A stretch of DNA of 64,000 nt from Trypanosoma brucei. Lineage: Eukaryota. Below are positions 16,300 to 58,140 of this stretch, one piece after another. Below the pieces are notes generated by a model that was not told where the DNA came from, did not search any database, and was given only the letters and a program-made list of their open reading frames with translations. Where the stretch lies: NCBI GenBank assembly GCA_000002445.1, contig CH464491.1, positions 4,608,001 to 4,672,000 of the forward strand, in the 5' to 3' direction. Every line of letters begins with the position of its first letter. Position 1 is the stretch's first letter. A program made the translations under genes and the position numbers.

Positions 16300-17100
16300 A
16301 ACCTTCTCATCCTACTACTTTATTCCCACAGGAAACTTTATAACTAAAATTTGTATTTTCAATTTTTTCATATTTTTTTTGAAAAGTATTAAAATATAAC
16401 TCATTTTGTGAAAATTTAGCAAATTATCTTACAACAGCAATTATTATAAGCTTCATAAAATTGCAAAAAAACTTCTTAAATTTTTGAAATTCTACAGAAC
16501 TCACAAAGACAGAAGCCATCAGAGAAATTTTCTCATTGACAAGAAAAACTTGAAGAGCGGCACTCAGGTTTGGGAAGCTTGCCTGTGCCGTCAACATAAT
16601 CTATCCATCCACATACTGCTTACTCAGTCGGTTTGAAATCCTTGTTTTCCGCTTCACAGGATTGATGTTTTGATGTTTACTGCAAGTCACCACGGTATTT
16701 GTCTCTCCTGTTACCGCTTCAACTTTGCATTCATGTGTTTTTGTGTCATAGTCGCAGTTAGCTTCTGGTCATTCTTCTGTGGTTGTGTTTTTCAGTTTGC
16801 ATTTATTTTGTTCATCTACTGTTAGCTTGCTCCTTTGTTTTTGCAGTGTATTTTCTGAATTGGTGACTGTGGGGCCCTCTATTAATATTTTTGGGGGCTG
16901 CCGCCGGATTTTTCGGGGCATTGCGTTGCTCCTGCATTGCCCTACCGACACTGCAGTTAACTGCTCGCCGCCTCCCCTTGCTTTGGCTGGGTTGCTGTGC
17001 GGCGTCACGACCGGTGCAGGCCGCTACGGCGACTGGCTTTAGCCTCCTAACTCCATATTCTGCCACTTACAAATATTAAGATTTTCTCGTTGGCGCCTGT
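16300..17100 (-). pseudogene. Degenerate VSG C-terminal domain fragment plus 3'UTR, joined to the telomere-like tract. Inverted paralogue of 37480-38100.
   Basis: Roughly 75-90% nucleotide identity to the reverse complement of 37480-38100. Tail reads as a VSG GPI signal. Confidence 0.55.
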
Positions 17101-18200
17101 TGAAAAGCAAATCGTTTCTCTCAGCTAAACTGCCGTGCGACAGCGTAAAAAGAAAAGCGCGCACAGCGCTATAGGCCATGCGCCACCGTTAAAAAAAATT
17201 TAAAAGCTGCGTGCAGAGAAAAATGAAGAGCTAAAATTCGCAAAAGTATAAAACATAACAACTCTCGTCAGCGCTGCAGGCTAAAAATATGCAAACGAAG
17301 ATGCCAGCTTGCCAAATAAGGGCTAGATCCAGCAGCGAAAAAAAGAGCCGCTGTATCACTTACAATTTAAAAAATGAAGAATTATTAAAAAATTTTAAGA
17401 GGTAAATTAAAAAATATCACTAACCCTAACACGCTAACCCTAACCCGTAGCTAGAAAAAAAGAGGGTTGCAATAAAAAGGGGGGCTGCAAAAAAAATCAA
17501 AATAAAAAATGTGAAGAATTTAAAAAATGAAAAAGTCAAAATGAAAAAAATTAAAATTAAAAAATATGATTAAGAAAAATTCGTGGATTAAAAAATTTTT
17601 TAAATTCAAATTCAAAAAGTCGGAAAAATAAAAAGAAAAATCATGCAATAGAAAAAATGGTTAAAAAAAATTGGTGAAAAACGCGCTAAACTAATTTATC
17701 GGGAATTCCAAAAACGTAAAAATCAAAAAAATATATAAAAAACAAAAGACACAAATAATTAAATAGAACAAAAGGAATTGGGAAAAAACGTAAAAATCTA
17801 AAAAATACGATAATTTAGAGAAATTAAAGATTAAAAGAAAGCTAAAAAATATTAACCTTAAAAGAAAAAAATCAAAAATGCCAAAAAAAATAATAAATGC
17901 AATGCTGCATTCGGGGGTCAAAAAAATGAAAAAAATTTTAAAGCCAAGTAGTAAAAATGAGCCAAAAAAAGATCGCAAAAAAAAAACAAAAAAAACTGGA
18001 GGTGTGTGTGCGGGGGCGTGGGGCGGTGCGGAGGGGGGAAGGAGGGTTAGGATTTGCATAACAAAATGGCTGCTGCATAATTAGGAAAATAAAAAATTTT
18101 TTAAATCGAAAAGCTAAAGAAAAAAATTTAAAAAAATGTTTAAAAAACTCTAAAACTAGGGGTGAAAAACACGGAAAAAATTAAAAACCCTAACCCTAAA
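17100..18200 (-). repeat. Degenerate telomere-like tract (TTAGGG on the minus strand) lying 3' of VSG 18383-19881. A-rich, with a G-rich block near 18000-18060.
   Basis: CCCTAACCCTAA at 18187-18198. TAACCCTAACACGCTAACCCTAACCC at 17421-17447. GGGGGGAAGGAGGGTTAGG at 18035-18053. Confidence 0.6.
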
Positions 18201-18320
18201 AATGTCAAAAAATTCAAGAAAAAAGAAAAAGTTTTCAGCTATCAGAAAACAAATTTTTTTTACAGAATCACAATTTTTTACAACCAACCAACAAACAAAG
18301 AAATCTCGGCTGTTTTTTAC

Positions 18321-18336
18321 GTGTTAAAATATATCA
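18321..18336 (-). promoter_or_regulatory. VSG 3'UTR 16-mer on the minus strand.
   Basis: GTGTTAAAATATATCA on the plus strand is the exact reverse complement. Confidence 0.8.
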
Positions 18337-18382
18337 TAGTAGCAAAAATTTTAGCAAAGGGAAAAAATTGAGGGGAGAGGGA

Positions 18383-19881
18383 TTAAAAAAGCAAGGCCAC
18401 AAATGCAGCAGAAACCACACTGAGGGCAAATTGTTTGCTTGCTAGAATAGAGGAATCCTGACATTTGCCTTCAATCCATCCACAAACGGCTTTCTTTCCC
18501 TCTGGTGTCTTGCCCGGGACCTTTTTGCATTCGTCTTCTGTTTTCGCCTCGCCACATTTTGATTCATTTTTACCATCTGTCCCTGCTTGGTTTGCTGCTA
18601 CTTTTTCTGCTGCCTCTTTGCCTTTCTCGCTCAATGTGCACCTTTTTTCTCATCTTTTGCTTAGGCCTTCTACGCGCATGGCGGTTTGCAATCTGTGTCT
18701 TTGTCTTTGGTATTGCACTCTGCTTCTTTGGAGTCGATTATTTCTTGTGGTTGGCGCTTGGAAGGTTTGATAGTTTCTGCTGCATGTGCTGCGGTTATAG
18801 TGGCTATGGCCAGAGTGTCTCGTAATTGCCACGCTTGAGCCTCTGCTGCTTGCAGTTTGGCCTGCATTTTGGCTAAGTCGGCTCTTATGGTATATGCTTT
18901 TTTCAGTTCCTTCGTTGCTTGGAGCATGTTTTCGACCCATTTTACTTTGTGGAATGTCCCAGTTCCCACTGCCTTCGTGTAATCAATACAAGTGGCTGAG
19001 GTGGTCCCGCCATTGCAGTCGACCGCATTGCCGTTGCCTAAGACGTACCGTCCGTTGTTGCTGTTGCCTGTGAAGGGTTTGTTGCCGAGGACTGATTCTA
19101 CTTGGGTGACTACCGCTGTCAGCAGTTCTGCCGTCACTTTTTTTGCCTCGCCGGCGGGTTGGCATTTTGCTACTATTGCCTTATATGCTGTGAGGGCAGC
19201 GGCGGCGTTGGCCCCTGTGCCGTAGTTGGCGGTGTTCTCGCCTTCTACGCATATTCCGTTGCTTGTGCTTGCCGTGCCGCAGACGCACGCCAGTGCTTGA
19301 GCCAGGTTCTGGCTCGCTGCCTTCGCATTGCCGCCGCCGTTGCATGCGTTGGCCCGGTTGTCGAAAGCTGCCTGGTCTGCCTCGGTGGCCATTTCATGCT
19401 TAAAAACCGCCGCTTTTAAGAACTTTTCGGTACTTTGTTTTAAGCCTTGAAGTTCGTTTTGTTTGCAGGCTGCCTCCTCCGCTATCGCCTTTGTTGAGTT
19501 GTACAGCCTTTCTAAAGCAGTGTGCGTCGCCCGCTTAGCCGGGCATTCCGGTGGCCTGGTGTAAACTGCCAATTTTTCAGCGTTTTTTTCGTTTTTTATT
19601 GTGTTTTTTACTGTTGTAAACTCGTTCTCCGTCTTGAGGACTCCAAAGGTTCCATTATCGTAGTGTGCGTCCGGTATGGTTGTCGCGTACAGCGCCTTCA
19701 CAGCCGCCGGTACTTCTGCCACCGCGTCTGCGGCATTGAAAGTTGCCGGGTCGATGGTGCCTGTCTCTGCCTGATATGCTGCACAAAGAGCTTCGTACTC
19801 CTGTGCATTTTCTCGCGTCGAATGTGCCACTGAAGTCAAAGCTGCTAGTGCGGTTAGTAGATTCGCTATTAGTGACCGCAT
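18383..19881 (-). pseudogene. VSG with one frameshift between the N-domain (18670-19881) and the C-domain/GPI tail (18383-18634). Could instead be intact with a sequencing error.
   Basis: Signal peptide MRSLIANLLTALAALTSVAHS. C-terminus ...CQDSSILASKQFALSVVSAAFVALLF. The two ORFs are in different frames. Confidence 0.8.
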
Positions 19882-20149
19882 TACCTATAAGTTAGTAAAT
19901 TTATGGTTTTATTTCTGTTGTAATGCGTAAATGTTCGTCCAATTATAGTGGCTTGTGAGCAAGTTTGGATGTCACAGAATCTTGTCTGTTTGTGGCGTTC
20001 TTTAAGACTTTAAGGCTAAAACATTAATTTTAATTATAAATCACCGTGGCAGGTGATTTTTTGTGATCAAACATCTTTCAAGTACCTTCGGAATCATATT
20101 TTATAAGTCTTAAGCAAATACCCTTCTTCAAACGCGTAAATACAATTTT

Positions 20150-21000
20150 TGTCATACGCGAAATTAAAATTTTCCAACCTCTCGTGAAGTTTAAATCTTT
20201 CTTAACTCTATTGTACTAAATTTACTCCCTTTTAAACACGCGTAAAAACTAAGATTTTTTTACGATTACCTCACTTTCTCCTCTCATTCAATTGGCTGCC
20301 CAGGAAAATGAATAACTGGAGCCTCTCCAATCACCACACTATTTGTAATAGAAAAAAATCTCTCCTTATAATCCAATCAAACCATCCCTCTCTTCAAAAC
20401 AAATCTCTTCCTCACCGCTTCTTCCTGAATCGCACTCCAAATTAATAAAGGTTTTTAAATACTTTTATCCGATCACAATTCCTCTCTCCCTTTTAATAAT
20501 TACACAAATGCATATTCAAGCCGTTTAAGCGCTTGTACTCTTGCTATTAAAGGATCCACCTCTAAGATAAGGTTTTCCGCTAAGATGTGATTTTAGTAAA
20601 TAAGGTAGCTTTTAATCCTCTTATTTTCTATAACTAACATTTAAAAACAAAAAGCATCTCTGCACACGTTCTTTGTTAACATTTTCTTTACTTTCTGCAC
20701 TATTTTGTATAAAATATTCCAAAGAATTCAAAAACTTATCACGGTCGGATATTATAACATCAGACCCATACAAATGAATTACAATATTCTTATCACTTAT
20801 ATTCTTCCTTTCTAAAAAATACATAACCCATCTAGGTCTTTTGACATGACTATACAAACCTCTTATCGCAATTGTAATAATTTCAAAATGACTTTGTTTG
20901 GCACTCAATATGAATCTACATCATCCTTGCGTTGCATGACTTTGTATCACAACCACAATAATTCTGTGTTTTTATTGTCATCATCGGTTATGTTTGTCTT
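20150..21000 (-). pseudogene. ESAG3-like (tentative) pseudogene, third copy. N-terminus degenerate.
   Basis: ORF 20621-20908 on the minus strand (EIITIAIRGLYSHVKRPRWVMYFLERKNISDKNIVIHLYGSDVIISDRDKFLNSLEYFIQNSAESKENVNKE). 3' portion homologous to 14280-14760. Confidence 0.45.
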
Positions 21001-21929
21001 TGTTATATCCTCTTGAAGTGATATAGTACTTCGATACACTAAATGTAATATAACCAATAAATCTTTCAAGACACATAACTTTATGTCATAAAATACTTTA
21101 ATGAATGAAAGGAACGTATAAAACATTTTTTGAATGTATATAAACTTATCCACTAAGTTTTTTAGTTGAAGAAACAGTGTTAACAAATGTAAATAGTGCC
21201 TTGATATAGTTTCTATGTCTCCTTAAGGGAATGTGCGTGGTGTCTGAAACTTATTTTTGAGCACACACTTACGGCGGTTGTCTTAGAAGTTCTCTTGTGT
21301 TACGGCTAGCGCCTGACACTATTATTCTTCCGTTTTCAATTGCATTCATCACATTTTTTAATCATGCACTGTTACGGGTATTACAGTAGGTAGGAGCATT
21401 ATTAGTGGATACATACTTATAATTTTACTAGTTGATACTGATAACCATCCTAACCAGCGGATTTCATAAGACCCTAATCGGAGTAGCGGTAATAACTAAC
21501 GGCACTGTTTTTGCTAGCATCGTCTCCACCCCCGCGTCTCTTCATTATATATTGAAATGTAGAGCACAATACTCTCCTGTATTACTTCTTTCTTTTACCT
21601 TCTGTCTCTGTTTTTATGAATAAAGTGGTGACTCCAATTTGTCCTGCACTCTGTCTCTCCTTTATTTTCCCCTCCATTGTCTCTCTGTGTATGGCGGTGC
21701 GTAAAAAATGCTTATGTTTAAAACTGAACATCTTTCACATTCTCACCCGTCCAATTATTTATGTTTTTGTGCGTCTTCTTTAATAATACACCCAGTATTA
21801 CCATTCACTCTCTTAATCCCACAGTGCCCGTGCCATTGTTTTAAATTCTTTTCTTTTGTTCAAATCATATGGTTTTTACAAAACTCCGATCTTCTTATAT
21901 TAATAGCATGCACACACTCATAACACAAT

Positions 21930-22080
21930 TCTATCACTATAATAATAATCATTATGATTATTATTATCATTGTTGCTGCTCTTATTATATTATTCGTATA
22001 TACACAATCACAGCACTCTCGTATCATAATCATTATCATCATTATTACTATAATTGTTAACGTAACTAACATGCATAAAA
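21930..22080 (-). repeat. 70-bp repeats in minus orientation.
   Basis: TATTATTCGTATATACACAATCACAGCACTCTC is the reverse complement of the 70-bp core. Flanked by ATT/ATC runs. Confidence 0.8.
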
Positions 22081-22327
22081 TAATGGAAATAAACAAAATA
22101 TAAAATGAACCAAATTAGAATATCACTCACTTTCTATATCCTATCACCCTACAAATTTCACTCATTTTCACCGTCATACATGTCTTACTAAAATTTTAGA
22201 TTTTCACATTTTGCAACGTTTTTACAATAGTTTTAAAATATGTCATATTTTAATAAATTTAGAGAATTCTCTCAAAACAGGAATTATTATAAATTTTCAT
22301 AAGTCTCACAAAATTGATTAAAAATAC

Positions 22328-22699
22328 TTAAAATAATACCAAACTCGTAAAAGCAGCATCCATGAGAGCTAATTTGTTATTTACAATGGAAATGTAATCA
22401 CAACATTTTGGTTCAGGCTTTCCCTGTCCATCAATGAAATCAGTCCAAGTGCAAACAGATTTCTTTCCCTCCTTAGGTTTGCGTGGCGCGTTGGCACATT
22501 TATCTGGGTCTGTATACTCGCTACAATTAGGGTCTTCTGTTGATAGAGTTCCATCTGTTCCTTGAATTGTCTGCGTTTCTCCATCATTGGGTTTGCAGTG
22601 GTTTCGCTGTCCCCTTCCCATTTGCAGTCGTTTGCTTTGCAGGTCACGTTTGTTGTGTAACGCTTGCTCTCTGCACGCGTCGCTAAAGTTTTCTGCCAA
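22328..22699 (-). pseudogene. VSG C-terminal domain fragment (123 aa) with 3'UTR at 22100-22327, fused to a telomere-like tract.
   Basis: ...KPKEGKKSVCTWTDFIDGQGKPEPKCCDYISIVNNKLALMDAAFTSLVLF. Confidence 0.7.
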
Positions 22700-22899
22700 A
22701 TTAGCCTCATGTGTTGCTGCAGAATATCGTTCGCCTGCTCCTACCCCGCCTTAAAAGCAGACAGATTGTTGCAGCGAAACTGCCACACGCCACTGTAAAA
22801 AAACCGCATGCAGCCGCTGAGGCCACCCTCCAGCTTTTGTCCCAACGAAAAAAGAATTTGAAACCGCGAGCAGCGGAAAGTGCAGAACTGAGATTCACA

Positions 22900-24000
22900 A
22901 ATTCAAAATGAAAAAAAGCGTAACGGCGGCACGGTAAAAATGAATATGAGAAGAATTTAAGGTAGGATGTCTGTTGCGCATAAGGTCCAGGCTTTACCGA
23001 AAAAAAAAAACAGCCGCTGCATCGCTAGGAAAAAAATGGCGAATTTTGAAAAAATAATATTGAGTCGATGTGGGGATGGAAATAAAGGTAGAAAAAATTT
23101 AAGCAAAGATATCTGCTGGAGGAAAAATAGTTGGAGTATTCACGAAAAAAAGAGCTTCTACATCACATAAAAATAATAAATTTAAAATTCTAACCCTAAC
23201 AACATTTTCTAGAAATTTTAACACGAATAACCCTAACCCGAAACACCTGAACCCGATAACCCGCTAACCCGGGTTTAAAAAAGGTAAGCCCCCCAAAAAA
23301 CGAAATCAGCTGCTGAAAAAAAAAACGTGACAAAAAAAAGAAAAAAATTAAAAAATGAAAAGGAAAAAATTTTTTAATTAAAAAAATAAAAAACAAAATA
23401 AATTATAAATTCAAATTAAAAAATAAAAAAATTAGTGAAAATTGAAAATAGAAAATTCCAAAAATCTGAAAATCTGAAAATCTAAAAACCTAAAAACATT
23501 GAAAACAAAAAAAAAGGAAAAAAAATCAAATCGCGAAAAAACAAATTAAAATTAAAAAAAAGGTGCCTGCGCGAGGGGGCGCGGGGGGGGGAAGGAGGGT
23601 TAGTGTTCGCATAATAAAACAGCTGCTGCATCACTTTTAAAAAAATTTAAAAAAAGTGGTGTAAAAATAAAAAAAGAGCCGGTGCATCATAAAGAAAAAG
23701 TTGAAATAAAAAACACAAAAAGAAAATCAAACGTCGGCGCAAAATAAAAAAAAGGATTAAAGAAAATAACTGAAAAAAAAACTAAAAAGATCGAAAACAA
23801 AAAAAGTGGCGTCAAAATAAAAAAGCGAGAAAAAGAAAAGAGGAAAATTAACCCTAACCCAGTAACCCTAAGCCTAACCCTAAGCCTAACCCTAACCCTA
23901 ACCCTAACCCTAACCCCCCTAACTAACCCCCCTAACTAACCTAACTAACCTAACTACCCCCCCCCCATTCCTACCTAACAACCCCCCCCCACTTCCACAA
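22900..24000 (-). repeat. Degenerate telomere-like tract 3' of VSG 24161-25738. Includes near-perfect (CCCTAA)n at 23850-23935 that decays into CCCTAACTAACC variants.
   Basis: TAACCCTAAGCCTAACCCTAACCCTAACCCTAACCCTAACCC read directly. G-block GGGGGGGGGAAGGAGGGTTAG near 23590-23610. Scattered CCCTAA units at 23190-23275. Confidence 0.8.
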
Positions 24001-24106
24001 AAAAAAACCGGAAAAGAAGAAAAAAATTTTAGTTTTCAGAAAATATTTCTAGACAATCAGACAGTCAACTTACAAAAACAGTTCAAATTTTTTCGGCTGG
24101 TTTTAG

Positions 24107-24122
24107 GTGTTAAAATATATCA
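24107..24122 (-). promoter_or_regulatory. VSG 3'UTR 16-mer on the minus strand.
   Basis: GTGTTAAAATATATCA on the plus strand. Confidence 0.8.
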
Positions 24123-24160
24123 AATGGCAAGAATTATTTAAGAAAAAGAGGGGAGAGGGA

Positions 24161-25738
24161 TTAAAAAAGCAAGGCCAAAAATGCAGCAGAAACCACGGTG
24201 AGGGCGAATTGTTTGTTTAGGAGGAAGCTAGAAGAGCGGCAACCAGGAGTTACTGGACCAGTGCCTTCGACAAAAGTAATCCATCCACAAAAGGCTTTCT
24301 TGCCTTGGGGAATCGGGCCAGTTATTTTGGCGCAATCCTCGGCATTTTGGGCGGCAGAGCACTTATCTGTTGTACCTGCTCCTGTAGCTTGCTCTCCTGC
24401 TCCTGCTTTGGTTGTCTGTTCTTCCCCATCTTTAGGTTTGCAGTGTTCTCCCTTATCCTCTGTAGTGCTATTCCAATGGCAACCGGTTGTCGGGCAGGTC
24501 GATTTTTTTTTGTGATTATTGCAGTTTACTTTTTGAAGTTGTGTTTTGCTTTCTTTACTGTTGACGGCTCCTGTTGATGCTGTCTGTTGATCGACGCTGG
24601 TGTAATGGGCTCGCTTTATTACCGCTTTTACTTGCTGCTCGAGTAGCGTGATTGCTGCGTTGTACTCTGTTACTTGGCTATTGTAGCTTGGTCGTTTCCG
24701 AAGCTCACTTGCGATGGTATCGAGGTCCTTCACCCATTGGATTGCATTTTTTTTAAGTTGTTTGTTCTGGGCGCCGTTGGTAATCTTGACGCAGCATGCG
24801 GTACCACCGCCGTCGCAGTTCGCCTCGCTTTTCAGGCCACCGATGTAAAGGTCATTTGTTCCCACCCGGGTGTGGGCCATTACCGCGTTTATTAAGTTAG
24901 TTATCAGACCGTCTGTGATCACAGTTCCCTCCGTTGCCGGGCATATTTGGCGTAGGTTTGGCCACGCTGAGGCTTGTGGGGGTGCCGCTAGTTCCCATGC
25001 CGCTTGAGTTGTTTGGGCGTCAGCACAAGGTTTATGCGATGCGGCGTTGGCTGAACCACAGACACAAAGAAAAGTGCCTGCGAGCGTCTTGGCCGCCGGT
25101 GGTGTTTCGCCTGTTGCGCAGCTGGCTGCGTAGGCTGCAGCCGCCCCAGAGAACATCGGCGCAGTTTCTGGTTGGTCCATATTGCTTGGTTTCTTTCCGT
25201 ATATAGCCTGGTACAGTTGGGTTATTAATGCTGCATCGTCTTTTGGTTTGTTTTGTTGGCCTGTCTTGTAGAATGCCTCTAGGTCATAGGCGGCGTCCGC
25301 TAGCTGTGCTATAGTTGGTCTAAGGTTTGCGAGCTGCTGAGCACTCGCTTTGTCAGTGCTGAACTGCTCCTTGAAGGTTGCTTCGTTTTTGTCCGTTTCT
25401 AGATATAAAGCCGCGTCTGCCCAGGTCGTCCATTTTGATTTCCAATCATCTGGTGCACTCTGTGGCGGATTGTCTTTTGCTTTTGGCTTGGTATCCTCCG
25501 TCTTTTCGGTGAGCAGTTGCCGCCAGGCAGCCGGCGCCATCGTCATATTTAACTTGTAGATGTCTGAAGCTTTTTGTGAGGCTGTTGTTATGGTCGGGTC
25601 GAATGTGATTGCGCCATCTGCGAGCTGTAGGGTTTTGCACAAAGGCCCAAAGACGCCTGTATTATCGCCGTTGGCGAAGCTATGGACTGTCCTAACGACA
25701 GCTACAAGTATAATGAAGTGAAAAGCTATTTTTATCAT
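24161..25738 (-). CDS. Apparently intact VSG, 526 aa from MIKIAFHFIILVAVVRTVHS. The longest ORF extends upstream to 25861.
   Basis: Uninterrupted ORF. C-terminus ...AFCGWITFVEGTGPVTPGCRSSSFLLNKQFALTVVSAAFLALLF. 16-mer 40 bp downstream. Confidence 0.85.
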   Translation of the reverse strand: MIKIAFHFIILVAVVRTVHSFANGDNTGVFGPLCKTLQLADGAITFDPTITTASQKASDIYKLNMTMAPAAWRQLLTEKTEDTKPKAKDNPPQSAPDDWKSKWTTWADAALYLETDKNEATFKEQFSTDKASAQQLANLRPTIAQLADAAYDLEAFYKTGQQNKPKDDAALITQLYQAIYGKKPSNMDQPETAPMFSGAAAAYAASCATGETPPAAKTLAGTFLCVCGSANAASHKPCADAQTTQAAWELAAPPQASAWPNLRQICPATEGTVITDGLITNLINAVMAHTRVGTNDLYIGGLKSEANCDGGGTACCVKITNGAQNKQLKKNAIQWVKDLDTIASELRKRPSYNSQVTEYNAAITLLEQQVKAVIKRAHYTSVDQQTASTGAVNSKESKTQLQKVNCNNHKKKSTCPTTGCHWNSTTEDKGEHCKPKDGEEQTTKAGAGEQATGAGTTDKCSAAQNAEDCAKITGPIPQGKKAFCGWITFVEGTGPVTPGCRSSSFLLNKQFALTVVSAAFLALLF

Positions 25739-27109: not shown

Positions 27110-27230
27110 CATCACCAGTATCATTTTCAGCACAATATTCGTATATACACACTTACAACACTCTCTTATCATTATTATTAACTTTACTATTATATTTATT
27201 ATTATTATAACCCTAGCAATACCCATGAAA
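27110..27230 (-). repeat. 70-bp repeat in minus orientation.
   Basis: CGTATATACACACTTACAACACTCTCTTATCATTATTATTAAC. Confidence 0.75.
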
Positions 27231-27439
27231 TAAACGGAATAGTAAATAAATCGAATTAGAATAGCATTCATTTTTCACGACCTCACACACTAATAATTTA
27301 TATTTATAGATCACTATTATGCAAAACATTTATATTTCAAATTCTTAAGAATATATCTATTTTTCTCATATTCACCACAAAAGTCTTAAAATATATTAAT
27401 TTTAAGAAGATTGTAGCAAAGTTTACAAGAAAGAAGTTT

Positions 27440-28897: not shown

Positions 28898-29889
28898 TCT
28901 TTGTTTTTTGTCTTGATCTTATAACTTGGGTGAAGTTTGAGTAAAATCGGTTTTTCGATTTCTCGTGCTTGGAAGTTTGGTGAGGCTGTGGTAGTTCGGC
29001 TGTGCCTTATTTTTACTTAGCGCTTTTACATTGTTCGTGATATCGTCTGTCTGCATCCTTTTGGATCGGTTCGTGTACTAATGGTCGAAAAAATGTATAT
29101 TACATTCTTTGCGTTGGTGTTACGGCAATTTGTGTGGGGTTTAAAGACAAAGTTCAATCTCCTTTCGCCGTTCGTATTTATTTACGGTTCTGCTGTCTCA
29201 TTTTTTGAAATTTCTGTTGTATTGCTGATGAGCTTAGTTTGCTATGCTTTTTCGCCTAAACCTCCATCACTACGGACACATTGCCGATGTTTCGCACTTG
29301 GTCACTATCGTTATATCATTTAAATAACAAAATAAAGGTTCTTTCTTAGAAAAAATAATTGCTCGGTGCGCTGTTCTTCACATTCTTTGCCAGGTTGTCG
29401 TTTGTTCTATGGATAAGCTAACTTTGGTCTTGTGTTTGACCTTTCAGACTGCTGCGACTTCTTCATCCTCGTCATTTCTTGTGGATTACCATTTTTACTA
29501 ATATGGTGCATCAATCATTGAATGCAGTTAATTTATACTTTTTGTTTAGCAGTATAAATTTGAGTGTATCACAGTCCAAACTTTTGAAATTTCATGACGG
29601 TCCTATAATGATTAGCACATATATCATTTAAAGAAACATACACAATCTTTTCAGTTCATCCTAATGCATTGGCGAACTTCATTTTAACGTTATACTTTCG
29701 ATAATATCAGACTATTTCACACAAATGTGGGTTATTATTGTTATATTTAATAGGAAAATAACTTTGACATTGGATCACAGTTACAAAATCATTTTTTATG
29801 CTCATGCTTATTCCTCTCTTCCTCACCATATCGCTCACTTGCTCACTTACATCGCATATTTGCTACTGTTTTTAGTGCTCACATGTTGC

Positions 29890-30015
29890 CGTGTATTTAG
29901 TTTTCTCCATAACCCATGTTACAATATTAGTATATACACACTCATAAAACTCTCCTATTATTATTATCATTATTATTATTACTGCTGTTGTTGTAATATT
30001 AGTGAATACATACAG
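29890..30015 (-). repeat. 70-bp repeat in minus orientation.
   Basis: TATATACACACTCATAAAACTCTCCTATTATTATTATCATTATTATTATT. Confidence 0.75.
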
Positions 30016-30017
30016 TA

Positions 30018-30356
30018 ACAACATACTCCTATCAGTATTACAATAACCCTAATTATCCCTACTATTATAACCTTAAATTACTTTTAATATCCATAAAATA
30101 AGCCTAAATAGAATACATAATAGCACTCATTTCTAACTATATTACCCTACTATTTTACATTCATGAGCCACAATCACACCAAAATTTTAAATTTTCATGT
30201 TTTCAACAAAAAGGGTTAGAACACATAAAAATATAGCTGATTTCAGATGATTCATTCAAAGTAGAAAATTTTTTAAAAAATTGGAAAAAATTATATTGGA
30301 AATTTAATTAGAGAAACTGAAAAACAAGCAAAAGAGGAACCCTCATCACATAAAAA
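30018..30356 (-). pseudogene. Orphan VSG 3' end: the last codons of a GPI signal plus the 3'UTR. I propose it is the missing tail of VSG 47570-48990.
   Basis: Reverse complement begins ...GTGATGAGGGTTCCTCTTTTGCTTGTTTTTCAGTTTCTCTAA, which translates MRVPLLLVFQFL then stop. Contains the UTR motif TAGAATACATAATAGCACTCATTTC. Confidence 0.6.
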
Positions 30357-30627
30357 TTTTTTTTTTGAATTTTCTTCGTGCCTTCGTGGGAGTTTCCCCC
30401 CACTGGCGCGGCCATCAGCCATCACTGTAGAGCCCTGAGATGCTATCGGTCTGGCGACTGTGGCAGAGTCTCCCTTTTTTATTCAGCCTAACACACTCTC
30501 TATAATTTTTGTTGTAGCTCCGCATTTGAACGGAATACAGCAGATGGGGCGAGAAGCCACCACACCCCGGACTCTCAAAAAGATGTCAATTAGCAATCCT
30601 TTTGTTTTGATTTTTGTTATTCGTTTA

Positions 30628-32646
30628 TTATTCTCTTCCCCTCTTTCTGTTTCTGTTGCTTGTTGACTGCATACCCTCTCTGTCTCTGAGGGTGTCTGGA
30701 CTATTCCTGCGTCCGGTGCTTTTCCTGCTAGCCCCACTCTCGGCAATAAGGGGGGAAGTTGCAGAAGGGAGAGTGGGTTGTATGACTGTTACATTAGGGG
30801 AGGAATTCACCTGTGGCCGGCTCCGTTCAACCGCAATAAGAAACTGCGCCAGCCTTTTAGAGAAACATTTATCCTGCACACACACACTTTCCACCGCAAA
30901 CCTGACACGTAACTCCTTCAAACCGGGACAGCTCATCAAGTGCAGTGACGTTTCTTCGCAGTCGCCGCGTTGGCTGGTAACAGCGCGCTCTACTCTCATA
31001 CCGTGCATCTTCTTTTGATATAGGGTGAGGCCAGTTTTGCTAGCACACTGCCTTCCGCATGTCGGGCACACCAACATGGATGCGTTTGTATGCGGGGAAT
31101 CAGTGGCACACAATTTTGTGTTATTGCTGCATTTAAGCTCGATTCCCTCACCTTTGTGGAAAGCCTTACAGTGTCGGATGAGGGAGTCCCTGCAACTGAG
31201 CACTTTTTGGCACACACCACACTGCACCTCGCCTTTCCCCGGGACGTCAACGTTTCCCTCACGGGCACGCTTACGAGGGAATTGCACCACCACCACGGTA
31301 CCGTCCTCCGTCACTATGCTCTTATGTTTGAATTTCTTGTGTAGTGACAGGGAAGAGCGTGTACCAATGCTCGCCTCGCACAGGTCACATTGAAACGGCA
31401 GCTTCCGTGTATCCTGAGAGGCTGGTGCTGCTGGGGCTCTACCATCTCCTTGCACTGAGTCTTCGTTCTCTCGCCCCCTTTTCACGCGGCAACTACCGCT
31501 GCCTATGCCATGTATTGTTCTAAGGTGGTGTAGTAGTCGGCCTGGCACTGCGAATTTGGAGGCACAGAGGGTACAATGAAGCACATGTGCTCTCATCGGG
31601 ACTCGTGTGCTCGATGGTAGAGGAACAATCGCCACCACTGGAGGGGGCTCCGGGGGGATGTCCACTGCAGGTGTTGCATCGCCGTATTTGATCCTCCGGA
31701 GGGCATCAGCTCGCACAAAGACGTGTTTGTTTACCATATGCGTTACAGCACTCGAGCGGCATTGGTATGTGGCATCACATTCCGTACATTTGGTCGGTTC
31801 GGAGGTTCTCTGAAGAGTACGTGTCGCAACAGTTGAGGCTGTTTGTATTGTTGGCCCTATCGCTGCATGTTGCGGGTTACACCATCGGCACTGTGGAGGC
31901 ACACTCGGGTTGATCTTTCGCAACATCCATCCATAGTGTCTTGAAGACCCAACCCGAAAGCGTGCCAGTGCCGTTTCTTCTTCCCTCGTCAGTTCTTCCT
32001 TATGTTTTGTTGGAAAGTGGTTTCCCGTTATACCAAACCTATGAGTGTTCTCATGGACTTCTTCCGACCTAAGCACTCGCTTCGCATAAGCAATGATGTC
32101 GGGGATCCATGTGACTCGCAACTGTGGTAAATCAGCGGCCTTTTTCGCCATTTCGTCACAAACCTCATTCGGTTTCACGCCACAATGGCCAAACACAAAT
32201 TGCAGTCGGATACGTATCTTCCTTCTCTGAACTTGAAGCAGAAGCCTCCATAGTCGTCTCAGAATTGTGTCCGTTACGGCTAGAGAGCCTGTCTGCAGTG
32301 CTGTTAACATTGACAGCGAGTCAGAGAAGATGGACAACCTGCTCGGTGTGCTTCTGTATGCCGCAAGCCATTTCAGCAGCCGTTGCAGTCCTATCTCTAA
32401 TGCTACGCATTCCGCTCTGTAACTGCATGAGAGTTCCCCTGCTCCGGTTTTGAGTGCACAAATCAGCGTGTTGTTTCTATAGAGCAGGGCAGCTGCCCCG
32501 GACTTCTCACCGAGGGACACGGATTCATCAGTCCACAATTCGTAGTGCTCTCGCCGCGGTGACTCCTTTCCCCTCCGTGCAAAATGCCGTGCAATCCACT
32601 TCTCAGAAGCCTCCCTTTTGACATCGTCAGGGTCATCAGCGCACAC
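30628..32646 (-). CDS. ingi C-terminal segment (672 aa), RNase H-like plus C2H2 zinc fingers.
   Basis: CTECDATYQCRSSAVTHMVNKH and CTLCASKFAVPGRLLHHL zinc-finger motifs. Confidence 0.7.
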   Translation of the reverse strand: MCADDPDDVKREASEKWIARHFARRGKESPRREHYELWTDESVSLGEKSGAAALLYRNNTLICALKTGAGELSCSYRAECVALEIGLQRLLKWLAAYRSTPSRLSIFSDSLSMLTALQTGSLAVTDTILRRLWRLLLQVQRRKIRIRLQFVFGHCGVKPNEVCDEMAKKAADLPQLRVTWIPDIIAYAKRVLRSEEVHENTHRFGITGNHFPTKHKEELTREEETALARFRVGSSRHYGWMLRKINPSVPPQCRWCNPQHAAIGPTIQTASTVATRTLQRTSEPTKCTECDATYQCRSSAVTHMVNKHVFVRADALRRIKYGDATPAVDIPPEPPPVVAIVPLPSSTRVPMRAHVLHCTLCASKFAVPGRLLHHLRTIHGIGSGSCRVKRGRENEDSVQGDGRAPAAPASQDTRKLPFQCDLCEASIGTRSSLSLHKKFKHKSIVTEDGTVVVVQFPRKRAREGNVDVPGKGEVQCGVCQKVLSCRDSLIRHCKAFHKGEGIELKCSNNTKLCATDSPHTNASMLVCPTCGRQCASKTGLTLYQKKMHGMRVERAVTSQRGDCEETSLHLMSCPGLKELRVRFAVESVCVQDKCFSKRLAQFLIAVERSRPQVNSSPNVTVIQPTLPSATSPLIAESGASRKSTGRRNSPDTLRDREGMQSTSNRNRKRGRE

Positions 32647-32829
32647 AGGCTTTATCTGCGTGTGAAATTGTGGTCAGCAGCTGTGGCGAAGCGTCGATGT
32701 CTCTAGTGGGTGCTCGCGTGGCTCAATGTGGAGGTGGGGATAAGACCGCATGATGCGGGAATGTAAGACTCTGACTGGGTGTTTGCTGTGGTATACTTCT
32801 TCAACACTGCGCCGCAAACATCCGCCTCG

Positions 32830-34062
32830 TCACTCACACATCAGCATGAATTTCATGCTGCGCACAAGAGTGGTCGTCTTGAGTGGCAGGAGGTTTGCTT
32901 CCAGCAGAGAGTCCTCTTTGCGCGTCCCATGCGGTATGCCAGCTATGATGCGACTGGCTTTGTGTTGTGCTGATGCAAGGAGGTCGCGATTTCGTTTCGA
33001 AGCGTCCCAGTACCATACCTCAATGCCATACATGGTGTGTGCCTGTACGAGTTCCAGATGAAAAGCTCTCAACACTTGTCGTCTTGGCCCCCATGTAGAA
33101 GCTGAGATGGCTGCTATCTGCAGTAGTCTGAAGTCCATCTTGCGTCTCGTTTCGGCCGCATGTGTTGCCATCCCCTGCAGACACTGGAATGTTACTCCTA
33201 GAAGCTTCGGTGTCCTGTCAGCTCCTATTCTTTCGCCGTCCAGTTGTAATGTAAGGTGATAGCGCTCTGTACACCCGAAGAGTGTGCACTTTGTTTTCGC
33301 TACGTTGACAGATATGAAGTACTCTTTTGACCACTGTAACACCACGTTTAGACCGCATTGTAGTGTGTGGTTGATGACATCCCTCTCTGTGTGCCTCGCA
33401 AGTAGCGTCAGGTCGTCTGCAAAGAATCCGTGCTGCAGCAACGGCACTTCTGCAAGGCGCTGGCTCAACGAGTTCATGACAATAATGAACATGATTGGGC
33501 CAAGGACAGCTCCTTGTGGGACTCCTCGCTCAAATGTTCTGCTGCTGGAAATCTTCTCCTTGAATCTCACTCTGCCAGTTCGGTTACTCAGAAATGATAC
33601 GCACCACTTCACAATGTGGGGTGATACCTTCATTCTGTGCATTTTCCTCGCAATTTTGTCGTGGTCTACTGTATCGAATGCCTTCTCGTAGTCAACGAAT
33701 ACAGCACCCGTACGATATTGGTGCGTGGGACGGCAGAGGGCAGCGCGGATGTGCAGGAGTTGTTCGAGCGTTGAGCATCCGTGGCAAAAGCCTGATTGCT
33801 GCGTCGTCAGCTGGGACTCAACAGTGTCTCTAAGCCTCGCGGCAATTATGCGCTCCATGACTTTGCAGAGACAGCTCGTGGGCGTTACAGGCCTGTAAGA
33901 ATCGAGGTCCTCCGCCTTTTTTCCGGCATTCAGGATGGGGATGATAACACCGATCTTCCATGCAGACGGCACGACTCCCGTTCGTATGTTTTCATAGAAT
34001 AGCTTCAGAACAACATTCAGCGCTGTTCTACCGAGATGTTCAGTGCCTCGTTGTATAAGCAA
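32830..34062 (-). CDS. ingi reverse-transcriptase segment (410 aa).
   Basis: FVDYEKAFDTVDH and GFFADDLTLL (YXDD-type) motifs. Confidence 0.75.
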   Translation of the reverse strand: MLIQRGTEHLGRTALNVVLKLFYENIRTGVVPSAWKIGVIIPILNAGKKAEDLDSYRPVTPTSCLCKVMERIIAARLRDTVESQLTTQQSGFCHGCSTLEQLLHIRAALCRPTHQYRTGAVFVDYEKAFDTVDHDKIARKMHRMKVSPHIVKWCVSFLSNRTGRVRFKEKISSSRTFERGVPQGAVLGPIMFIIVMNSLSQRLAEVPLLQHGFFADDLTLLARHTERDVINHTLQCGLNVVLQWSKEYFISVNVAKTKCTLFGCTERYHLTLQLDGERIGADRTPKLLGVTFQCLQGMATHAAETRRKMDFRLLQIAAISASTWGPRRQVLRAFHLELVQAHTMYGIEVWYWDASKRNRDLLASAQHKASRIIAGIPHGTRKEDSLLEANLLPLKTTTLVRSMKFMLMCE

Positions 34063-34786
34063 TCAGGTCCGGCTGCGGATCCACTCGGTAGCAGTTTGAT
34101 CGATCTCCGTAGTTCAGCCATCGTGATGAGACTGAACTCACTCGCTATCGTCTTTATTGGTGCCGGTGGGTGTGAGTCGGGGTGCCTTCTTGCGCGGGAC
34201 GAGTACAGTTTAATGAACCTCTCAGCTTGACGGTAGTCCGTGATGGCCGCGTTATCAACAAGTACAGCCGGTGTGGTTAGTGGTCGTGGCGCATATACCT
34301 TCTTGACAATGTGGCAACTGCAGCGGTCTGACACCGCAAGTCTGGAGCATAGCGTGCTCCATCTCTTCTTTGTGGTACGGTCCAGGATCTGCTTACGCGT
34401 GGTTACCAACTTTTCCCTTCGGTGGGAGGGTCCGCATCCAGCGATCTCTTCATCGAGTTTCGCGAGCTCAGGTGTCCAATGTGGTGGCGTTACTCTGCAG
34501 CCACGGGGGACGGAGACCTTCGTTGCAATGCGGATGGCGGAGCTCAATTTCTGTTCCAGGGTGTTGACGTTCTTCTCTCTACCAATTTTCCTGCAGAGCT
34601 CGTCAACCTTGAGACGGAAATTCCTCCAGTTAGCTTTTAGCCATGCGTACATGGGCTTTCGAAGCCGCGGGCAACTCAGTGCATCTGTGTCGTCTACAAC
34701 GATAACGTCGAAAAATATGTGATGGTGATCGCTATCGGGAGAATACAGCGATGTCCACGTGTACACTGTACAATTCCTTGACAGTG

Positions 34787-35602
34787 TCACATCAGGGGTG
34801 GACTCCCCGTGGTGGCGTGTGTAAATGGCGCACTCACCAGTGTTGCAGACCAGAAACTGGTTGTCAATGCACCACTGTGTGAGGGTTTCACCCTTGGTAT
34901 TTGGTGGGTTCGCGCGATCCCATGCCAACGCGTGTGCGTTAGCGTCTGCACCGATGAGAGCTGGGCACCGTCAGTCGTCAGAAGCGTATCTAGGTCAGTT
35001 GCCGTGAAGGTGTGTTTTGGTGGGATGTATGCCGACGTGACAGTCAGCGCCGTTCCACGTGCAAGGTGAATTGTTGCATGCACTTGTTCAATGCGACCAA
35101 CAACGGCCATACCGGTCTCGACTGGTAGGTCCTCCCTCACTAGTATTGATACACCACCTCCTTTGCAGTTACGAGCTATTTCGTGATGTTGGTAGCCAGC
35201 AACGCTAAAGCAAGCCGCCTCTTCAGGCGTCATCCTTGTCTCGCTCAACAGACAAAAGGCGATCCGCTCATCAACAAGGGTTTTGTGGAGTGCTAATCTC
35301 TTTCCTTGAGATAGCCCGGCACAGTTCCACTGCATCCCGCGCAACGACGGGCCGGGATTCTCTTCCACATCACCGGACAGCAGCATCTTAGTGCGGATGA
35401 TACTGCTGATGGTACGCTGGCACGTGCCCAGGGACAGACAAATGAAAAACGGTGTCCCAGCAAGACGCTGCTGATCCTTGTGCTGTATGATGCTGTAGCC
35501 GGAGCAAAGCAGTGTTTCCCATGAAAGGAACGCTGCTGGCTCTTGGCTTCCCCCGATGATACGGGGTACTGGACCCTGGAACCACGTTGAGGTGGCCGGC
35601 AT
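34787..35602 (-). CDS. ingi N-terminal segment, APE-like endonuclease.
   Basis: PGPSLRGMQWNCAGLSQGKRLALHKTLVDERIAFCLLSETRM. Confidence 0.65.
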   Translation of the reverse strand: MPATSTWFQGPVPRIIGGSQEPAAFLSWETLLCSGYSIIQHKDQQRLAGTPFFICLSLGTCQRTISSIIRTKMLLSGDVEENPGPSLRGMQWNCAGLSQGKRLALHKTLVDERIAFCLLSETRMTPEEAACFSVAGYQHHEIARNCKGGGVSILVREDLPVETGMAVVGRIEQVHATIHLARGTALTVTSAYIPPKHTFTATDLDTLLTTDGAQLSSVQTLTHTRWHGIARTHQIPRVKPSHSGALTTSFWSATLVSAPFTHATTGSPPLM

Positions 35603-35610
35603 CGCCAGGG

Positions 35611-36834
35611 AACGAAGCTCAAAGAAAGCGGCGCCATGCAGCTATCCGGTCTAGCAAAAAAAATGGCAGGTGTTGCGGTAAAAGGCATAGCAGCAAAAGC
35701 AGCCAAACTGAAAGACAGTTTTCCGGAGGAAGCTTTGCCAGCAGACGCATCAAAACAAGCGGCAACTGCAGCAGCTAAAAAGCTCCGGGATGCGGCGTTC
35801 GGGGGAGTGGACACAGCACTAAGCACGCTAACTCAGGCAACGACGTTCGGCGGTACACCAGCAAACAACAGGGACGTCGAATGCAAGACACAGGGGCCGG
35901 GCAAAGGCACACATACTGCTCTAGCAGCGCTAGCATGTGTCTGCTGGCAGGGAAACACAAACACGGTGACACACGGTGTATGCAACAAAGCGATGGAAGG
36001 TCAAACAGGTTGGAACGGAAACAGCAACAAACCGGACGCGACGAGCCTTATCAAGCTCGGCAAAAGTTGCGGACCGGCCGGCAAACAAAAGGTAACAGCG
36101 GAGCGAATTCGTGCAGCCGTAAATTCACTGAGGAAGCTTATAACCGGCCACGACTCCGGCAACCTATACCTAGGCACTTTTATCACAACCGATTGCTCAG
36201 GATCAGCAGGAAGCGGTGTCTGCATCGAATTCACAAACTTAGCAGGCGGCACAGAAGACCCGCTGACCAAACTGCCCTGGATCAACAAGGTGGAGGCAGC
36301 GGCAGCCGAACTGGAGAAACTGACGCAGGTTTCGCACAAGGCGCAAGCAATCAACATCAACTAGGAGGAGCAGAAACCGAAGCGAACCAAGCGATCAAAC
36401 AGGCTGTGGCAGAAGCAGAAGAAATAAGTAAAGGTAACAACAACCCGACTGTAGTGGCGCCAGCACTAAGTAAGACAATCTGCGAAGCTCACAACAAGTC
36501 CAAGACGGAATGCCTAGGTGCTCAATGTAAATGGGGTGGCAAAAAGGATGATGACGGCCCATGCATAGTAAATGAAAGCAAAGTTGCAGAACAAACAACC
36601 CAAACAGGGGCAGGAGAAAAGAAAGACGGGGCAGCTTCAAATGGGTGTGCAAAACATGGAACCAATAAGGAGGCTTGTGAAAGTGACAAAACAGGCGACA
36701 AACAAAATTGTGCATGGAGGAAGGGGAAAGATAATGAAGATGACAAAGATACAGAGAAGTGCCGAAATGCTAGTTTTCTAGTAACCAAACAATTAGCCAT
36801 GATGGTTTCTGCATTTATGGCCTTGCTTTTTTAA
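35611..36834 (+). pseudogene. 5'-truncated VSG lacking about 130 N-terminal residues, abutting the ingi 5' end. One frameshift at about 36364.
   Basis: No signal peptide. N-domain distal half (ALAALACVCWQGNTN...). C-domain ...CAWRKGKDNEDDKDTEKCRNASFLVTKQLAMMVSAFMALLF. 16-mer at 36891-36906. Confidence 0.8.
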
Positions 36835-36890
36835 AAGAATTTTTTCCCCTCAATTTTTCCTTTGCTAAAATTTTGCTATTTGAAAACTTC

Positions 36891-36906
36891 TGATATATTT
36901 TAACAC
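36891..36906 (+). promoter_or_regulatory. VSG 3'UTR 16-mer.
   Basis: Exact TGATATATTTTAACAC. Confidence 0.8.
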
Positions 36907-36949
36907 CTAAATTCTGCCGAAAAATTAAACTGTTTTTGTAAAGTTTGTG

Positions 36950-37480
36950 ATTCTGTAAATTTTTTGTTTTTCTTGCAACTAAAAGAATTTTTTCTCTTTT
37001 TTTATTCTTTTTTGGAATTTTTTAAGGGTTAGGTTTTTATTTTATGTTTTATGGTTTTTAATATTTTTAATTTTTCATTTTTATTTTATCGATTTTTTCT
37101 TTTTTCATTTTTGTGTTTTTTTAGACGTTCAGGGAAACAAAACCAACTTAAAGCTAAAGAGAAACTAGACAGGGTTAGTGTTATTAATTTTTGTGGGGTT
37201 TTTTCACTTCTTTTCAATTTTTATTCTTCTATAAATCGCTATTTTTTAAATTTTAAGTGATGCAGCGTATCTTTTTTGATGCAACTCTAACCATTATTTA
37301 CCCAGCACACAGCTGCGTCTTCATATTTTTACCTGCACCGTCAACTTGATTTGCTACTTTTTTTGATTTTGTGAATTTCAGCACCTCATTTCGCGTTACA
37401 TGCGGCTTTAAACTTTTTTTATAATGGCTAGCACGTAGAAGTTTCGCTGCTTGAAGCGATTTGCTTTTCAAGAGACGCTA
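36950..37480 (+). repeat. Short, very degenerate telomere-like/T-rich tract 3' of VSG 35611-36834. Homologous to the reverse complement of 17100-17400.
   Basis: TTAAGGGTTAGG at about 37026. CAGGGTTAGTG at about 37165. Shares the CGCTGCATCACTTAAAA motif with the other tracts. Confidence 0.45.
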
Positions 37481-38100
37481 ACGAAAAATCTTAATATTTA
37501 GAAGTGGAAGAATATGGAGTTCGGTAGCTAAAGCCAGCTAACATAGCAGCCTGAACCGGTCGTGGCGCGGCACAGCAATTCCAGCCAAAGCAAGCGGATG
37601 CGGCGACCAGTTAACTGCAGCGTCAGCAGGGCAAAGCACGCATAACGCCATGCCACAACAGATCCGGCGGCGGCAGTCGAAGATCTCAGTGCAGGGCCCC
37701 ATAATCACGACAGGCAAAAATCCACCGCAAAAATCAACTAAAAAACACAACAGCTTAGTAATACCCAAGCGAGCACTGCGACTATGATGCCACTAAAAAC
37801 AAATGCAAACCAAACCTGAAACAGTAAAATAAAACACAGCAGCAGGAACAGGAGAGACAAATACCGTGGTGACTTGCAGTAAACATCAATCACAGCAAGC
37901 ATGTGAAGCGGAAAACAAGGATTTCAAACCGACTGAGTAAGCAGTATGTGGATGGATAGATTATGTTGACGGCACAGGCAAGCTTCCCAAACCTGAGTGC
38001 CGCTCTTCAAGTTTTTCTTGTCAATGAGAAATCGGCTATGAGTATAGCTGCTGCTTTGACGGGTTTTGCTGCACTCTATAATTATAAAATTATAGTACTT
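37480..38100 (+). pseudogene. Degenerate VSG C-terminal domain fragment plus tail. Inverted paralogue of 16300-17100.
   Basis: Translates ...QACEAENKDFKPTE..VCGWIDYVDGTGKLPKPECRSSSF(frameshift)FLVNEKSAMSIAAALTGFAALYNYKIIVL then stop. Confidence 0.6.

Positions 38101-57629: not shown

Positions 57630-58140
<511 letters not shown>

Follow-up and report, generated by a model that had tools for sequence, protein, structure and literature searches.

Expression-site-type VSG 3′ flanks with telomere-like hexamers lead into VSG C-terminal fragments inside a silent array of Trypanosoma brucei

We analysed a stretch of 64,000 nucleotides (nt) of Trypanosoma brucei DNA (contig CH464491.1, positions 4,608,001 to 4,672,000; hereafter the window). 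The window is a silent variant surface glycoprotein (VSG) gene array of the Trypanosoma brucei group. Three of these genes (VSG1, VSG2 and VSG3) head composite units that we refer to as modules 1, 2 and 3. In the standard cassette plan a 70-bp repeat is followed by a VSG, its 3′ untranslated region (3′UTR) and the next 70-bp repeat. The other cassettes of the window fit this plan, but the modules do not: between the VSG 3′UTR and the next 70-bp repeat there intervene a spacer of 0.7-1.5 kb, which carries telomere-like hexamers or their remnants, and a fragment of a VSG gene. Based on these findings, we consider it probable that the modules are interstitial copies of an expression-site-type VSG-to-telomere spacer. 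This spacer would have been joined head-to-tail to a VSG 3′ fragment within the array, probably in a single event, with duplication to follow. The coordinates of all features are given in Table 1.

Telomere-like hexamer arrays in the window are confined to the flanks of these VSGs and far exceed chance. We scanned 18-nt windows for at least 14 of 18 matches to cyclic (TTAGGG)n and compared the outcome with shuffled sequences. A total of 71 windows reached this threshold against about 1 in the shuffles, merging to 17413-17452, 18182-18204, 23225-23246 and 23843-23920. Meanwhile, a search for CCCTAACCCTAA with at most one mismatch returned 11 matches (0.14 expected) at 17418-17443, 18188, 23231 and 23866-23913, in modules 1 and 2 only. 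The hexamers of these two modules are therefore more than chance CCCTAA matches, as the preliminary description of this stretch had argued for module 2. All hexamer windows of the modules read TTAGGG on the sense strand of the VSG. No antisense window at the same threshold was found in any module, and there was no head-to-head partner array. Module 3 contained no window at this threshold and no perfect TTAGGG; its remnants, GGGTTAGG at 37026-37033 and GGGTTAG at 37172-37178, keep 1-2 units. Hence, the claim that a hexamer tract follows each of the three VSGs holds well for modules 1 and 2 and weakly for module 3. The tract is weak, too, in the flank of a fourth VSG described below (1.5 units). 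One additional stretch at the threshold, 10007-10024, was dropped, being isolated and devoid of hexamer repeats on inspection.

The tract of module 2 has two parts. It comprises about 65 nt of T1-2AG1-6 units, which on the sense strand read TTAGG, TAGG, TAG, TTAGG, TTAG, TTAGG, TTAG, TTAGGGGGG, TTAG and TTAGGGGGG, followed by about 10.5 TTAGG(G/C) repeats. A near-perfect run of 14 units had been read at 23850-23935; Tandem Repeats Finder instead reports 11.0 copies with 87% match at 23849-23916, preceded by the variant units.

The 3′ flanks of the VSGs place these hexamers in a defined context. We extracted the sequence following every copy of the conserved 3′UTR 16-mer (TGATATATTTTAACAC) in the window and found that the flanks fall into two clearly different types. 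The array-type flank displays TTTATGAAATTTATGA ahead of the 16-mer and reaches the next 70-bp repeat within about 150-250 nt. It is found on most cassettes and on all three VSG C-terminal domain (CTD) fragments. The expression-site-type flank is found on four VSGs, namely VSG1, VSG2, VSG3 and an A-type VSG at 10653-12086, and consists of the canonical 3′UTR of expressed VSGs (CCCCTCAATTTTT...TTGCTA...TGATATATTTTAACAC), a conserved segment and then the hexamers. The 16-mer is exact after the three module VSGs and has one mismatch after the A-type VSG. Following the CTD fragments, it has three mismatches in module 1 and two in module 2, and no copy with up to three mismatches was found after the fragment of module 3. 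When the four expression-site-type flanks are aligned (alignment A2), their first hexamers share a single column, 160-191 nt past the stop codon. A candidate fifth tract at 29960-30365 was rejected, since it is an array-type 3′UTR and 70-bp repeat located beside an ingi retroelement.

This arrangement is that of a telomere-adjacent VSG, in agreement with the preliminary description, and has a close counterpart at a genuine expression site. Our comparison with such sites relies on published descriptions instead of alignment. A T2AG3-like tract lies just downstream of the VSG221 gene in its expression site (nt 211-322 of AJ271641; Glover et al. 2007, PMC1807955) and is reported to consist of 46 bp of T1-2AG1-6 with 10.5 degenerate repeats behind it, spanning 106 bp altogether (PMC1807955). 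There, as in the modules, the tract starts about 160-240 nt after the VSG and has the same orientation, and the tract of module 2 shares its two-part structure of variant T1-2AG1-6 units followed by about 10.5 degenerate hexamers. Unlike the VSG221 tract, three of the four copies in the window are down to 1.5-2 hexamer units. The canonical 3′UTR with an exact 16-mer is likewise common to both. The distance from VSG to telomere repeats is 200-1590 nt across 17 expression-site clones (Hertz-Fowler et al., PMC2567434), and the distance from stop codon to VSG fragment in the modules (about 0.7-1.5 kb) is inside this range. Downstream of expression-site VSGs, RAP1 has been reported on sequence that is T-rich or G/T-rich (PMC10686619), and the DNA just downstream of these genes shows enrichment of both VEX1 and RAP1. 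Judging by their stop-to-fragment lengths and by the reported binding of RAP1 to T-rich sequence, the module spacers fit a complete expression-site-type spacer.

Two qualifications apply to the telomeric character of the modules. Even at a genuine chromosome end the VSG221 tract lies within the spacer, and the hexamer blocks of the modules are therefore elements of a spacer and not necessarily remains of a terminal telomere. In addition, none of the flanks ends in terminal (TTAGGG)n. Unlike expression sites, the module spacers lead to a VSG C-terminal fragment, a second 3′UTR, a 70-bp repeat and further cassettes. The suggestion that telomeric VSG cassettes were placed in the array together with telomere-proximal DNA is thus retained for the flanks, which are of telomeric type and interstitial, and is weakened for the hexamers, which need not derive from the telomere proper.

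The sequence between the hexamer blocks has a sense-strand T content of 54-56% and lacks a recognisable hexameric pattern. As most of each tract is of this T-rich kind, the earlier term "degenerate TTAGGG tract" overstates its nature. Internal periodicity within the T-rich sequence is limited to weak low-complexity repeats. Modules 1 and 2 share a GC block that is 78% identical over 86 nt (E-value 1.8e-12, module 1 against 23569-23654). An 18-mer of this G-block occurs exactly at 18034 and with one mismatch at 23587, with no further copy in the window, and the GCYGCTGCATCAC motif was matched 10 times against 2.3 expected, 7 of the 10 within the modules. The G-block and repeated motifs had been described as common to the tracts. 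The enrichment of the motif stands, and the G-block occurs in modules 1 and 2 and is absent from module 3. A G-rich block of about 50 nt (17990-18052 and 23569-23604) displays quadruplex-like G runs on the strand opposite the VSG and ends in GGGTTAGG, a telomere repeat of 1.5 units that is inverted relative to the neighbouring hexamer blocks. On the sense strand, the sole inverted telomere-like element of the modules is the 9-nt CCTAACCCT in the GC block.

The modules are related to one another beyond their flanks. Modules 1 and 2 are collinear, both displaying in the same order a first hexamer block, T-rich sequence, a GTGATGCAGCAGC-type motif with the GC block, T-rich sequence, a second hexamer block, a region of mixed composition (hereafter the "mix" region), a CTD fragment, and an array-type 3′UTR with 70-bp repeat (69% identity over 290 nt). 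About 400 nt ahead of the fragment align across all three modules, up to about the start of the VSG fragment (alignment A1). The "mix" region of module 1 is homologous to 37225-37504 in module 3 and more distantly to 22731-23184 in module 2. Local alignments of the "mix" regions gave z-scores of 49 for module 1 versus 3, 7.4 for module 1 versus 2, and 5.5 for module 3 versus 2, and none of 200 dinucleotide shuffles reached the observed value.

Paralogy in inverted orientation links modules 1 and 3: 16529-17393 matches 38031-37223 at 72.8% identity over 875 nt (E-value 2e-138), with 58% to 100% identity per 60-nt window. Their homology had been put at about 75-90% and said to run through the tract. 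The inverted paralogy was confirmed, with the lower average given above, and the homology is interrupted at the tract, where module 1 has about 785 nt and module 3 about 180 nt. A patch of about 120 nt in the CTD fragments (16557-16675 versus 37884-38003) is 96-100% identical amid sequence of about 73% identity, which suggests a more recent conversion.

The preliminary description also held that each interstitial tract ends in a VSG CTD fragment with its own 3′UTR and a 70-bp repeat. This was substantiated by PF10659 matches in the two fragments searched, those of modules 1 and 2, and by a 70-bp repeat core after each of the three fragments. The frame-corrected translation of the module 1 fragment matched PF10659 with an E-value of 5.6e-13 and had a tblastn match to a VSG at 40.7 kb in the window; the module 3 fragment is the inverted paralogue of this one. 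The GC-rich sequence at 16850-17060 displayed no VSG match, a phmmer search against 1.8 billion representative proteins giving a single, non-VSG match. The homology of the roughly 400 nt ahead of the fragment in three modules and the collinearity of modules 1 and 2 are most simply explained by common descent from one composite unit. Such descent also suffices to explain the recurrent junction, which had been taken as a hint of a preferred breakpoint.

We propose the following course of events for such an origin. A VSG-bearing chromosome end with this type of spacer would have lost, or nearly lost, its terminal repeats. The repeat-poor end would then have been joined head-to-tail to a VSG cassette broken near the boundary between the N-terminal and C-terminal domains, or copied onward into it. 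Candidate routes are microhomology-mediated joining and break-induced replication that switched template and ran on into another array. Trypanosomes tolerate a telomere-less end and resect it progressively (PMC1807955). T. brucei reportedly does not use non-homologous end joining, and telomere-adjacent VSGs are copied by break-induced replication (PMC12137147). Taken together, these properties make microhomology joining or template switching the most likely routes. The joining event was probably single. The composite unit of flank, spacer, "mix" region, CTD fragment, array-type 3′UTR and 70-bp repeat would then have been duplicated within the array, giving modules 2 and 1 in tandem and module 3 in inverted orientation. 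Subsequent decay would have removed most of the module 3 spacer, an ingi would have truncated VSG3, and the upstream VSG bodies may have been swapped by ordinary cassette conversion. The tracts would need no current function under this scenario, and would provide array genes with expression-site-like 3′ homology.

Several observations weigh against this origin. The likeness to real telomere-proximal DNA is drawn from published descriptions and not from alignment, and three of the four flanks retain a mere 1.5-2 hexamer units. Were the "mix" region a segment of some long generic spacer, homology among the modules would be no proof of a single junction. The VSG fragments start at differing positions of the VSG, an extra GC-rich stretch of about 200 nt precedes the CTD in modules 1 and 3 and is missing in module 2, and the junctions are too diverged for microhomology to be read.

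Some of these observations would be expected if several telomeric VSG cassettes and their downstream spacers had been captured independently, with every event ending within the C-terminal region of a VSG already resident there, as the idea of a preferred breakpoint would have it. The fragment of module 2 begins at the first CTD subdomain and those of modules 1 and 3 about 200 nt further upstream, spacer length varies widely (about 0.7 to 1.5 kb), and "mix" homology would arise anyway if 1.3-1.5 kb is the generic expression-site spacer, for which lengths up to 1590 nt are published. We nevertheless regard independent captures as unlikely: the three "mix" regions align to one point just ahead of the VSG fragment, on both sides of the junction modules 1 and 3 are straightforward paralogues, and the junctions display no leftover terminal repeats of variable length. 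We also think it quite unlikely that the hexamers are intrinsic to one family of VSG 3′ flanks, perhaps with a function, and never stood beside a chromosome end at these loci. Such an element might bind a protein, or might act as a pyrimidine/T-rich signal in the 3′-end formation of VSG mRNA, with the 11-copy run of module 2 produced by local slippage. It would account for the common start column of the four flanks, for the low number of units in three of them, for the occurrence of single TAACCCTA motifs in four (-)-strand 70-bp repeat regions, for the internal position of the tract at a real expression site, and for the enrichment of VEX1 and RAP1 there. It leaves unexplained why a VSG 3′ fragment without an intervening 70-bp repeat follows every such flank and why there is a second hexamer block, and the module 2 tract has two parts like that of the expression site, which is not the product of simple expansion.

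Telomere-to-telomere fusion, which had been raised as an alternative, and healing of a random break are both very improbable sources of the tracts. The short inverted CCTAACCCT in the GC block is the one element in their favour. Fusion is opposed by the single orientation of all hexamer arrays and by the shared orientation of the upstream VSG and the downstream fragment, and the conserved, non-random point at which the hexamers start is not what healing at random would leave. It is scarcely credible that the tracts are low-complexity sequence that arose by chance, or that telomeric reads were wrongly built into the array during assembly. The tracts are indeed A/T-rich, and the assembly has two 100-N gaps elsewhere, but this is countered by the shuffle controls, by the existence of three copies that are diverged yet collinear, and by an independent Trypanosoma equiperdum contig, on which the same VSG2 flank is present as far as the point where the tract starts.

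Telomere-like repeats at internal positions are known from other systems. Such interstitial blocks are generally taken as scars of past rearrangements of chromosome ends. The modules resemble subtelomeric interstitial telomeric sequences (PMC6410037) in having degenerate, unidirectional blocks at an internal position, in a multigene region and at the boundaries of duplicated units. They differ from these in that the blocks are very short (12-150 nt), lie within a gene-flank unit and are tied to antigen cassettes. In Plasmodium knowlesi, the SICAvar/pir islands (PMC9131526) also combine variant-antigen genes away from chromosome ends with telomere-like repeats, but these are chromosome-wide, accompany another gene family and are not part of a defined 3′ flank that is fused to a fragment of a gene. 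T. brucei arrays are known to contain isolated CTD-encoding fragments, each with its own 3′UTR, in the context of 3′-donation (Hall et al. 2013, PMC3708902); the fragments of the modules differ in having no 70-bp repeat of their own upstream, where a telomere-type spacer stands instead. The flank architecture (PMC1807955) and subtelomeric interstitial telomeric sequences (PMC6410037) are already known. In the literature searched, we found no description of telomere-type tracts or flanks fused to CTD fragments inside T. brucei arrays, although a prior description is possible. VSG C-terminal gene fragments and 3′-donation in T. brucei arrays were reportedly also treated by Marcello and Barry in 2007.

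These findings have implications for the interpretation of VSG loci. TTAGGG-like repeats have been reported 3′ of telomere-proximal VSGs and used as a signature of telomere proximity (PMC3708902). The modules display the same signature deep in an array, and so TTAGGG-like repeats alone are insufficient proof of telomere proximity. If a chromosome end was internalised and then duplicated, the modules are a physical record of silent-array remodelling. They also place beside silent genes a class of telomere-seeding sequence that is tied to RAP1 and VEX1 binding at expression sites. Any influence of the tracts on silencing, on fragility or on the choice of donor would bear on the hierarchy of VSG activation. 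Array genes with this flank may be latent chromosome ends or favoured donors. After telomere deletion, several independent events of de novo telomere healing all took place within the VSG221 tract (PMC1807955). By analogy, it is possible, if doubtful, that array VSGs with an expression-site-type flank act as latent chromosome ends, telomerase healing a distal break at the T2AG3-like tract. This would make a silent gene of the array, for instance the intact VSG2, telomere-adjacent and eligible for activation by break-induced replication. The modules would in that case record ends that were buried again, arrays could grow and shrink through such seeds, and the carriers would form a privileged class of donors.

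Table 1. Features of the three modules and of neighbouring elements in the window
Feature	Position	Strand	Description
VSG1	18383-19881	-	B-type pseudogene, frameshifted; C-terminal end and stop codon intact; VSG_B E-value 3.9e-46 on a 403-aa open reading frame
Module 1 expression-site-type flank	18205-18382	-	3′UTR with exact 16-mer at 18321-18336 and conserved spacer; aligns with the three other flanks
Module 1 first hexamer block	18182-18204	-	TTAGGGTTAGGG on sense strand, 183 nt after stop codon
Module 1 GC block	18016-18096	-	G-rich on + strand; CCTAACCCTCCTTCCCCCC on VSG sense strand; preceded by ATGCAGCAGCC motif
Module 1 T-rich spacer	17453-18015	-	Non-hexameric; whole stretch 17453-18181 including GC block is 54% T on sense strand
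Module 1 second hexamer block	17413-17452	-	About five degenerate TTAGGG units on sense strand
Module 1 "mix" region	17061-17412	-	T-runs among GC-rich motifs such as GTGATACAGCGGCTC; junction-proximal
Module 1 VSG 3′ fragment	16424-17060	-	CTD at about 16424-16830 with frameshifts and stops; GC-rich 16850-17060 a putative part of it
Module 1 array-type 3′UTR and degenerate 70-bp repeat	16172-16423	-	Degenerate 16-mer 16386-16401; core 16172-16211
VSG2	24161-25738	-	Intact B-type, 525 aa; signal peptide, CTD, glycosylphosphatidylinositol (GPI) signal
Module 2 expression-site-type flank	23997-24160	-	Exact 16-mer 24107-24122; also on T. equiperdum contig L001
Module 2 T2AG3-like tract	23843-23996	-	Begins 164 nt past stop codon
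Module 2 GC block	23569-23654	-	GTGATGCAGCAGC motif adjacent
Module 2 second hexamer block	23185-23285	-	Degenerate; core with at least 14/18 matches at 23225-23246
Module 2 "mix" region	22731-23184	-	Homologous to "mix" regions of modules 1 and 3
Module 2 VSG CTD fragment	22328-22730	-	GPI signal; one frameshift in first subdomain; PF10659 E-value 6.3e-13
Module 2 array-type 3′UTR and 70-bp repeat	21979-22327	-	Degenerate 16-mer 22230-22245; core 21979-22018, 37/40 match
VSG3	35611-36834	+	B-type pseudogene, 5′-truncated and frameshifted, abutting ingi
Module 3 expression-site-type flank	36835-37224	+	Exact 16-mer 36891-36906, remnant hexamers, short T-rich spacer, no GC block
Module 3 "mix" region, GC-rich stretch and degenerate CTD fragment	37225-38103	+	"Mix" region 37225-37504; inverted paralogue of 16529-17393
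Module 3 array-type 3′ flank and 70-bp repeat	38104-38442	+	Core 38403-38442
Fourth VSG and flank	10653-12298	+	Intact A-type VSG 10653-12086; TTAGGGTTA at 12247; outside the coordinates first noted
RIME	12299-12803		At convergent strand switch
Full-length ingi	30366-35610	-	At strand switch
Full-length ingi	48991 to about 54000	+	At strand switch

The identity of the three genes heading the modules, as first described, was borne out by Pfam matches to VSG_B (E-values 4e-46 to 1e-61) and Trypan_glycop_C (E-value about 1e-24). A straight translation of VSG1 contains five in-frame stops. VSG3 enters the VSG_B profile at position 119, lacking the first 118 or so, has its CTD in a second frame, and starts directly against the ingi 5′ end (35582-35610). 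The only apparently intact VSGs of the window are VSG2 and the A-type VSG at 10653-12086, and both have the expression-site-type flank. Intact genes are therefore present on two of the four flanks of this type versus none of the approximately nine array-type cassettes, which are small numbers.

VSG2 is 100% identical to T. equiperdum OVI protein SCU68767.1 across 93% of its length and 80-84% identical to T. brucei VSGs. The corresponding T. equiperdum contig (CZPT02001062, 1814 bp; L001 in Table 1) carries VSG2 and its flank as far as the first bases of the G-rich tract. The contig is broken by N runs, and past an N run part of the VSG 3′ end is repeated; it illustrates how short-read assemblies lose telomere-like tracts. 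For orthologous or telomeric loci, exact-product look-ups with VSG2 (two starts), the VSG1 open reading frame, the A-type VSG, the open reading frame of the module 2 fragment and VSG221 returned nothing, and a homologue search with the VSG2 CTD gave no matches.

Across the window, Pfam identified VSG N-terminal and C-terminal domains in many open reading frames and, within two ingi retroelements, reverse transcriptase and RNase H; Rfam gave no matches. The content of VSG array, ingi and RIME points to a subtelomeric context. The strand of the array flips near 12.8 kb, 35.6 kb and 54 kb with a retroelement at every flip, and the 5′ termini of ingi/RIME lie exactly at 12299 (+), 35610 (-) and 48991 (+). 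The RIME breaks off the fourth flank about 50 nt beyond TTAGGGTTA. To its left is thus the telomere-type flank (12087-12298) of an intact (+) VSG, and to its right a (-) truncated VSG N-terminal fragment (12810-13340) with weak tblastn homology to amino acids 23-140 of a B-type VSG. No obvious target-site duplication was found at the RIME, suggesting a retroelement-mediated rearrangement rather than a simple insertion. Similarly, the ingi at 30366-35610 stands between an orphan array-type 3′UTR with 70-bp repeat (29913-30365) and the 5′-truncated VSG3, so its two sides are not two halves of one target. The second ingi starts 117 nt past the end, at 48874, of the open reading frame of a VSG at about 47570-48874 that itself has no CTD.

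A paralogous element of about 1 kb (71-77% identity) occurs at 3215-4195, 14269-15328 and 20169-21102, each time between a 70-bp repeat and a VSG. It displays a decayed open reading frame with a signal-peptide-like start and no Pfam match. Its copies at 14269-15328 and 20169-21102 were considered as proof of a tandem duplication of modules 1 and 2 and rejected as such, because the third copy lies upstream of an unrelated cassette. Four (-)-strand 70-bp repeat regions each have a single TAACCCTA motif (TAGGGTTA on the - strand) beside their TAA-rich part, at 16240, 27208, 30044 and 54828; the motif is absent from the (+)-strand 70-bp repeats of the window. The two 100-N assembly gaps (57875-57974 and 61665-61764) lie inside long (TAA)n stretches of 70-bp repeat regions.

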